64,000 nucleotides of DNA from the NCBI GenBank assembly GCA_014727835.1, contig WJMT01000124.1, positions 17,508 through 81,507 on the forward strand, in the 5' to 3' direction. This document shows, one piece after another, positions 10,458 through 10,640 of this stretch. Source of the DNA: Candidatus Aminicenantes bacterium (GTDB taxonomy: Bacteria > Acidobacteriota > Aminicenantia > Aminicenantales > Aminicenantaceae). The notes beneath the pieces were generated by a model. That model was not told where the DNA came from, did not search any database, and saw only the letters and a list, made by a program, of their open reading frames with translations. The stretch's first letter is position 1. Every line of letters starts with the position of its first letter. Both the position numbers and the translations under genes were made by a program.

Positions 10458-10473
10458 TGCAAGATACGTGCCT
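10458..10473 (-). promoter_or_regulatory. sigma-54 promoter candidate for the regulator-kinase operon
   Basis: The reverse complement reads AGGCACG-TATC-TTGCA, matching 15/16 positions of TGGCACG-N4-TTGCA. It lies ~47 nt upstream of the ATG at 10411. Confidence 0.65.
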
Positions 10474-10534
10474 TATGGTTTTTTATTTTATCCGGGGTGA
10501 GTGGTGCATGAACCCACATGTATTATACACAAAC

Positions 10535-10571
10535 TGTCCGATATTGAACAGTCTCTGTTCCCAAGTGAACA
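10535..10571. promoter_or_regulatory. tandem palindromic upstream activator sites (candidate EBP binding sites)
   Basis: TGTCCG-ATAT-TGAACA (10535-10550) and TGTTCC-CAAG-TGAACA (10556-10571) have centres 21 bp apart. They sit between the two divergent sigma-54 promoters. The same architecture recurs at 29585-29621. Confidence 0.5.
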
Positions 10572-10624
10572 CTTAACCGGCTTACAAGCCTTATTTTTTT
10601 GCAGTTTCCCCTGAATGATGAATA

Positions 10625-10640
10625 TGGCACATTTATTGCA
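10625..10640 (+). promoter_or_regulatory. sigma-54 promoter of the exporter operon
   Basis: TGGCAC-ATTTA-TTGCA is an exact match to the TGGCAC-N5-TTGCA core. It lies ~100 nt upstream of the ATG at 10741. Confidence 0.8.

Follow-up and report, generated by a model that had tools for sequence, protein, structure and literature searches.

In Escherichia coli and Salmonella, zraP and zraSR are transcribed from divergent sigma-54 promoters controlled by ZraR, the hyc and hyp operons are listed with the same FhlA site, and the site of another regulator, GlrR, takes the form TGTC-N10-GACA (PMC4987338). The subject of this work is a 335-bp spacer in a 64,000-nucleotide stretch of Candidatus Aminicenantes bacterium contig WJMT01000124.1 (the window, meaning this whole stretch), which separates the gene of an NtrC-type response regulator on the minus strand from the adaptor gene of an exporter operon on the plus strand, as read from the sequence. 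Two predicted sigma-54 promoters face outwards from a central pair of dyads, and the spacer is probably a bidirectional sigma-54 control region that works along the lines of the NtrC paradigm. The original prediction had described this arrangement as the zraP/zraSR-type layout. The likeness holds for the divergent sigma-54 promoters that flank the sites and for the two-component operon on one arm, whereas the regulator family, the gene order and the effector differ.

The enhancer sites of AAA+ activators usually lie roughly 80–150 bp upstream of a sigma-54 start. The generic dyad shape for this activator class, established for NifA and NtrC, is TGT-N10-ACA, and the canonical activator loop that contacts sigma-54 is GAFTGA. 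At the enteric glnAp1/glnAp2 promoters, two tandem NtrC dimer sites occupy one helix face about 90–140 bp upstream of the sigma-54 promoter. The upstream sigma-70 promoter, glnAp1, whose -35 element overlaps an activator site, provides basal amounts of regulator and kinase and is shut off on activator binding. A different kind of relative is found in the BceRS-BceAB systems of Firmicutes, in which the kinase has two membrane helices and no outside sensor, and the ABC transporter that it induces, of the MacB/FtsX type, is encoded next to it.

Architecture of the Proposed Control Region

The pump-facing promoter, P_pump, is a predicted sigma-54 -24/-12 element on the plus strand, TGGCACATTTATTGCA (TGGCAC-ATTTA-TTGCA, 10625–10640). 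Its GG and GC elements are exactly 10 bp apart within TGGCAC-N5-TTGCW, and the sequence read agrees with the exact core that had been proposed for this position. The second -24/-12 promoter, P_reg, lies on the minus strand and faces the regulator-kinase operon (AGGCACGTATCTTGCA, AGGCAC-GTATC-TTGCA, 10473..10458). Here the site, the strand and the GG–GC spacing, again the correct 10 bp, stand as first described; the accompanying score of 15/16 had counted the free spacer bases, and the proper score is 10 of the 11 defined consensus positions. With both starts placed 12 nt after the GC element, transcription would begin near 10651 from P_pump and near 10447 from P_reg; the leaders would be 90 nt long ahead of the HlyD-type adaptor gene and 42 nt long ahead of the regulator ATG at 10405. 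This ATG is preceded at 8 nt by a GGAGAG ribosome-binding site, and it is preferred to the GTG at 10411 given by the open reading frame (ORF) finder because the latter is too near that ribosome site.

Two dyads of the type TGT-N10-ACA lie between the promoters as putative activator sites. Dyad 1 (UAS1; TGTCCGATATTGAACA, TGTCCG-ATAT-TGAACA, 10535–10550) is centred on 10542.5, at -108.5 from P_pump and -95.5 from P_reg, and dyad 2 (UAS2; TGTTCCCAAGTGAACA, TGTTCC-CAAG-TGAACA, 10556–10571) is centred on 10563.5, at -87.5 from P_pump and -116.5 from P_reg, all positions being counted from the predicted starts at 10651 and 10447. The two centres are 21 bp apart, and the coordinates of both palindromic sites agree with those first reported. 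Each dyad would be the site for one regulator dimer. With respect to P_pump, both fit the enhancer range of roughly 80–150 bp from the start.

The remainder of the spacer holds few recognizable features. T-tracts of six and four residues (10479–10489) stand directly upstream of the P_reg -24 element, in a T-rich block that is kept in the consensus of a 13-sequence alignment, and between dyad 2 and P_pump there is a T7 tract (10594–10600) with a conserved TTTCCC after it. These two tract regions may impose an intrinsic bend that helps looping. No integration host factor (IHF) site was recognized in the spacer by eye, and IHF/HU genes were not searched for. A palindrome, GGCTTACAAGCC (10579–10590), resembles a terminator in combination with the T7 tract; it was set aside, being unconserved in orthologues, which keep only the T-run, and uncalled by a terminator scan. 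No canonical sigma-70 promoter or terminator emerged from a consensus scan of 10350–10800, and the spacer has no Rfam match at E values up to 1.

One further element deserves attention. On the minus strand, upstream of P_reg and exactly 7 nt from dyad 1, a perfect TATAAT (10527..10522) forms a candidate sigma-70 -10 box, here called P1. The same hexamer at the same 7-nt offset is found in the window and in nine other distinct Aminicenantes loci with regulator identities of 68–89%, and identity over 10520–10529 reaches 0.86 in the orthologous spacers. With a 17-nt spacer, the -35 position of P1 coincides with the dyad-1 half-site TGTTCA.

Conservation and Use of Sigma-54

Nine orthologous spacers (regulator identity 79–100%) were aligned, and mean identity to the window sequence was determined for each element. 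P_reg and P_pump both score 0.93, dyad 1 scores 0.88, and dyad 2, whose outer TGT and ACA triplets are conserved, scores 0.72; the remaining spacer reaches 0.51. The 13-sequence alignment displays the same conserved islands. All four elements (0.72–0.93) thus stand out from their surroundings in related genomes.

The manner in which P_reg varies is informative. In distant Aminicenantes loci, GG and TTG are retained at exact spacing and GGCA in all but one, while position -26 and the five spacer bases vary among orthologues. The forms encountered include AGGCAC-ATATC, CGGCAC-ACTTA-TTGCA, GGGCAC-GAATG-TTGCA, AGGCAT-GTATT-TTGCA and TGGCAT-GGAAA-TTGGA, and the single GGTA variant is TGGTAT-AAAAT-TTGCT. 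A fixed GG/TTG with a free spacer is the pattern that a sigma-54 promoter predicts, unlike that of a protein operator or an RNA helix. Two of the orthologous loci are interrupted: L038 (CAYFXE010000002.1) carries a long perfect hairpin, GGGGTCAGACTTTGAAAACTTGAGT...ACTCAAGTTTTCAAAGTCTGACCCC, between enhancer and P_reg, reminiscent of a miniature mobile element, and L037/G001 has an insert of about 250 bp between P_reg and the regulator start.

Sigma-54 itself is complete in this genome. The rpoN gene is a 480-codon ORF on contig C113 in which the AID, CBD and DBD domains are all found (48.1, 210.5 and 200.9 bits, respectively). A genome lacking rpoN and a lack of motif conservation in relatives had been named as grounds for refuting the original prediction; neither applies, and its interpretation is supported, while the sequence read confirms the observation itself. 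Sites with at most one mismatch to the sigma-54 core number seven in the window against a shuffle mean of 2.7, and seven were reached in 1 of 100 shuffles. Across the genome, exact TGGCAY-N5-TTGCW cores occur 24 times, with about 5.6 expected from composition, and half of them (12 of 24) are intergenic, correctly oriented and at most 300 nt from a gene start, a context in which chance would give roughly one. This enrichment of exact cores in promoter context means that the standard sigma-54 consensus is clearly in use.

Other sigma-54-like matches in the window were also considered. Those at 17056 (plus strand) and 28673 (minus strand) lie inside coding regions and were set aside. Another, TGGCATATAATTTGCT (4630–4645, plus strand), is located 36 nt ahead of a gene for a FecR/DUF6600 protein (4681–6633) and counts among the 12 well-placed exact cores of the genome. 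Upstream of it there is only a single TGT-N12-ACA dyad (4552–4569), so it is probably under a different activator.

A Probable Shared Enhancer before Orphan ADOP Permeases

Dyad pairs of equal quality occur only twice in the 3.1 Mb genome, both times in the window and both times between genes. The second pair belongs to a module at 29585–29689 (plus strand), in which TGTCCGATAGCGGACA is followed 21 bp on by TGGTCTAAAATGGACA and then by the promoter TGGCATGAAAATTGCT (29674–29689). It stands before an orphan ADOP permease gene (29739–32105), which is not accompanied by an ATPase or adaptor gene. The dyad centres are 62 and 83 bp from the GG element, compared with 63 and 84 bp at P_pump. Two more modules, again each before an orphan ADOP permease, are located at C4:11521–11628 (minus strand) and C37:27528–27624 (plus strand). 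The proximal dyad centres of the four modules are 63, 62, 64 and 53 bp away from GG; the last distance is shorter by one helical turn, so that the helix face is kept. One in three of the 12 well-placed exact sigma-54 promoters belongs to these modules. Their common geometry suggests that the regulator acts on three or more additional promoters, each before an orphan ADOP permease.

The module on C4 has no divergent second promoter; by eye, the divergent unit beside it appears to start with a small PadR-like gene and to continue with another ADOP permease gene. ADOP-type permeases number about 19 in this genome.

The link between module and regulator was examined in 41 related genomes with the pattern TGTYCG-N5-GNACA-N60-80-TGGCAY-N5-TTGCW, which gave 48 matches, compared with none for the backwards control. 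The pattern is present in 15 of the 16 genomes that have a regulator orthologue and in 2 of the 25 that lack one (Fisher p = 3e-8, the genomes not being phylogenetically independent). Both of these two exceptions come from the genus of the window, and one of the assemblies is only 80% complete. Taken together with synteny, the co-occurrence links the dyads with this regulator rather than with other activators.

Distribution across Phyla

Orthologues of the regulator at 64–69% identity are found in Bacteroidota (Labilibaculum, Marinifilum, Ancylomarina and others), Ignavibacteria, Calditrichota, Rhodothermales and KSB1. At most of these loci, the regulator gene is divergent from the same adaptor gene, and the intervening spacer contains the same dyad pair. 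The cross-phylum dyad consensus is TGTnCG-N4-CGnACA, present twice, 21–22 bp apart. A pump-facing match of the TGGCAY-N5-.TG type is found in 41 of 54 divergent loci across phyla; loci of Marinifilaceae are among those without a pattern match, and some of them carry, as judged by eye, variants such as TGGCATGAAAGTGGCT. The -12 part of the pump-facing promoter is generally looser in the other phyla (TTGA, TTGG, GTGG). In the Bacteroidota loci L062–L109, the pump-facing TGGCAY is kept and the -12 part reads TTGA, GTGG, ATGA or TAGC, not TTGC, which hints at a different -12 preference of their sigma-54.

The regulator-facing side is distributed otherwise. A search with the relaxed pattern.GGCAY-N5-.TG detected no regulator-facing promoter at any locus from Bacteroidota, Calditrichota or Rhodothermales. 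Beyond the Aminicenantes clade it gave a single match, a doubtful one, in L058, a locus labelled Ignavibacteria whose spacer of 1.2 kb is interrupted. As P_reg is detected only in the Aminicenantes clade, the switch seems to have been one-sided at first and to have gained its second side in this lineage.

Genes of the Locus

The regulator gene (9029–10405, minus strand) encodes, according to Pfam and the translation, a REC domain, a AAA+ sigma-54 interaction domain and a Fis-type helix-turn-helix domain, with D56, the Walker A motif GENGTGKE and GAFTDA replacing GAFTGA. The start of the histidine kinase gene (7711–9039, minus strand) overlaps the regulator stop. The kinase is composed of two transmembrane helices, a PAS-like region, a DHp domain with the motif THEIMN and an ATPase domain; with only four residues (TQTT) between the two helices, it lacks an outside sensor domain. 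Convergent to the kinase gene is an ORF on the plus strand (6748–7671) whose product has, in this order, a pyruvate-kinase C-terminal-like and a diadenylate cyclase (DAC) domain.

The exporter operon (10741–17990, plus strand) comprises five genes, coding for the HlyD-type adaptor (10741–11997, ATG at 10741), an ABC ATPase (12068–12757), an ADOP-type, internally duplicated MacB/FtsX permease (13055–15379), a second ATPase (15736–16404) and a TolC-like outer-membrane protein (16431–17990). Two small ORFs lie in gaps of the operon (12776–13024 and 15424–15696, plus strand; 82 and 90 amino acids), and neither has a Pfam or NCBIfam match.

None of the proteins of the locus reaches an NCBIfam equivalog cut-off. 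Against the model for ZraR, formerly named HydG, the regulator scores 330.8 bits (cut-off 760), and the kinase scores 103 against the ZraS model (cut-off 479). The best matches of the adaptor and both ATPases are DarC and DarD, with 214 bits against a cut-off of 450 for the adaptor and 275.6 and 245.9 against 375 for the ATPases. The permease scores 308.3 against TIGR03434, the cut-off of which is 622.3.

Proposed Mechanism and Alternative Explanations

In the favoured explanation, the sensor-less kinase would phosphorylate the adjacent NtrC-type regulator, dimers of which would occupy both dyads on the same helix face and allow a AAA+ ring to assemble. By DNA looping, perhaps aided by the T-tracts, the ring would remodel sigma-54 RNA polymerase at either flanking promoter. 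Rightward, the consensus promoter of the HlyD/ABC/ADOP/TolC exporter operon would fire; leftward, so would the slightly weaker promoter of the regulator-kinase operon. Induction would then also raise the level of the signalling pair, which amounts to positive autoregulation, and the perfect pump core together with the slightly off-consensus regulator core would fit a strong effector output combined with moderate positive feedback. The TATAAT promoter would supply basal regulator and kinase, and regulator binding could shut it off, as at glnAp1/glnAp2. Given that the kinase is sensor-less and that the regulon consists entirely of exporters, sensing through the transporters, in a Bce-like fashion, or through the cytoplasmic PAS-like region is suggested. 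Positive autoregulation of the two-component pair together with the pump, as the original prediction implied, is the best reading, but it is probably incomplete in view of the TATAAT box and of at least three further promoters that share the enhancer.

A number of observations weigh against this explanation, and several of them would suit a one-sided switch instead. In such a switch, the dyads and P_pump would be real, the P_reg match would be no working promoter, the regulator-kinase operon would be transcribed from sigma-70 only, for instance at the TATAAT box, and the conserved block at 10458–10473 would be, for example, the site of another protein or a leader-RNA element. P_reg has its sole mismatch at -26 (T to A), and sites with one mismatch are barely enriched in promoter context (7 of 84 genome-wide, not a clear excess), so P_reg cannot rest on the match alone and needs position and conservation. 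Both are available: 114 positions separate the regulator start from dyad 1, and a site with at most one mismatch on the right strand would arise among them with a probability of about 0.002; moreover, the variation among orthologues obeys the sigma-54 rule, with GG and TTG(C) at exact spacing and both the spacer and -26 free. That the spacer matches no Rfam family also speaks against a one-sided switch. On the other side stands the geometry, since the distance from dyad 1 to P_reg is 70–72 bp within the genus and about 40 to about 130 bp in other lineages, with a helical phase that varies likewise, and is out of phase with the pump side. Furthermore, no regulator-facing sigma-54 promoter is detected in the loci of Bacteroidota, Ignavibacteria and Calditrichota, the doubtful L058 match aside, from which it follows that autoregulation is not intrinsic to the system. 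Transcription from the conserved upstream TATAAT would, in addition, read through the P_reg block. The -35 element of P1 is itself poor (TGTTCA, 3/6), and the sigma-70 consensus scan did not call it; that the box is an additional basal promoter for regulator and kinase, repressible by regulator binding, is about evenly balanced. All in all, we consider a purely one-sided switch rather unlikely at this locus.

It is also conceivable that some other activator or repressor binds the dyads and that the adjacent two-component pair controls something else. The genome encodes about eight other full-length sigma-54 activators, TGT-N10-ACA is generic for the protein class, and the binding of the dyads by this regulator is deduced from synteny and co-occurrence. 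Nevertheless, the regulator gene and the dyad pair remain adjacent across several phyla, down to 64% regulator identity, and the modules accompany the orthologue in nearly all relatives that have it (15 of 16, compared with 2 of 25 without), which makes a different binder improbable. The loop of the regulator, GAFTDA in place of the canonical GAFTGA, is a further point against the favoured explanation. The same loop is present in 77 of 79 regulator orthologues across phyla and co-occurs with the predicted sigma-54 promoters; it is also found in one other activator of the genome, encoded on contig C76. As regards transcription, the public runs that hold this DNA are two sediment metagenome DNA runs, and no RNA run was found. 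Finally, short degenerate motifs arise randomly, and the 84 one-mismatch sigma-54 matches, which are mostly inside genes, illustrate how all the elements might be chance matches in an AT-rich spacer with no regulatory role. Against this, it is the elements alone that are conserved, their geometry is found four times in the genome, the exact cores are enriched in promoter context, and the pattern search in relatives returned 48 matches with none in the control. Chance is thus a most improbable explanation, already effectively refuted by the element conservation and the search in relatives.

Significance

The spacer is probably a real but conventional sigma-54 control region, and the general understanding of sigma-54 regulation is unchanged by it. 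The modestly interesting extras are the predicted regulon of orphan ADOP permeases under a shared enhancer, the clade-specific gain of a second promoter and the possible sigma-70/sigma-54 tandem. The literature yielded no study that deals with sigma-54 in Aminicenantes or with the regulation of MacB/ADOP exporters by sigma-54, nor an experimental study of this two-component system.

The putative operator TGTnCG-N4-CGnACA, repeated at 21–22 bp, and the predicted promoter map are now available as testable sequences, and part of the large family of orphan ADOP permeases is provisionally placed under a defined regulator. A natural comparison also presents itself, as the same enhancer occurs with predicted sigma-54 autoregulation in Aminicenantes and without it in the cultured Bacteroidota Labilibaculum, Marinifilum and Ancylomarina.

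A bolder reading, though a doubtful one, can be put forward. The locus might stand at the centre of an undescribed system that uses sigma-54, corresponds to the Bce modules of Firmicutes and is spread over Aminicenantes, Bacteroidota, Ignavibacteria and Calditrichota. The sensor-less kinase would read the activity of MacB/ADOP-type exporters, and one enhancer sequence would recruit a changing set of orphan ADOP permeases, all of which would rely on the core operon for their adaptor, two ATPases and TolC-like channel. Aminicenantes alone would have added a second sigma-54 promoter behind a repressible sigma-70 promoter. If true, this rewiring could lead to a bistable or memory-type response.

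Comparison with Known Systems

The zraP/zraSR region shares with the present locus a single NtrC-type regulator, an autoregulated two-component arm and an envelope-related effector arm. The differences are considerable. The regulator and kinase described here score below the cut-offs and are not orthologues of ZraR and ZraS; the regulator gene precedes the kinase gene, whereas the Zra order is kinase, then regulator; and the kinase has no periplasmic domain. Furthermore, the effector arm encodes a tripartite ABC exporter of five genes in place of a small periplasmic chaperone/repressor, and the enhancer serves at least three further promoters. Because the proteins, the gene order and the effector arm all differ, the region is not a member of the Zra family.

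The glnAp1/glnAp2 promoters offer a parallel for the left arm, in that a sigma-70 box, here a putative one, lies upstream of a sigma-54 promoter with its -35 on an activator site. Unlike its enteric counterpart, however, the enhancer in this spacer would also fire a second, opposite sigma-54 promoter, and the output is export instead of nitrogen assimilation. The hyc and hyp operons of E. coli and Salmonella resemble the locus in having a shared activator site between two divergent sigma-54 operons. In that case, FhlA is no two-component response regulator and is encoded by neither arm's first genes, and the site sequence (CATTTCGTACGAAATG) is unlike the dyads.

On the effector side, the adaptor, ATPase, MacB/FtsX permease and outer-membrane channel recall MacAB-TolC and the darobactin exporter DarBCD, both of them type VII ABC tripartite pumps. 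The scores are below the equivalog cut-offs, the permease is of the internally duplicated ADOP type, there are two different ATPase genes, and the pump is under predicted sigma-54 control. With regard to signalling, the Bce systems differ in using an OmpR-type sigma-70 activator where this locus encodes an NtrC-type sigma-54 activator. An outer membrane is present here, the pump has an adaptor and a TolC-like channel, and contact between kinase and transporter is only putative. Even so, the sensor-less two-helix kinase is encoded beside a MacB/FtsX-type transporter, and the predicted regulon is made up of MacB/ADOP permeases, a likeness that suggests sensing through the transporter.

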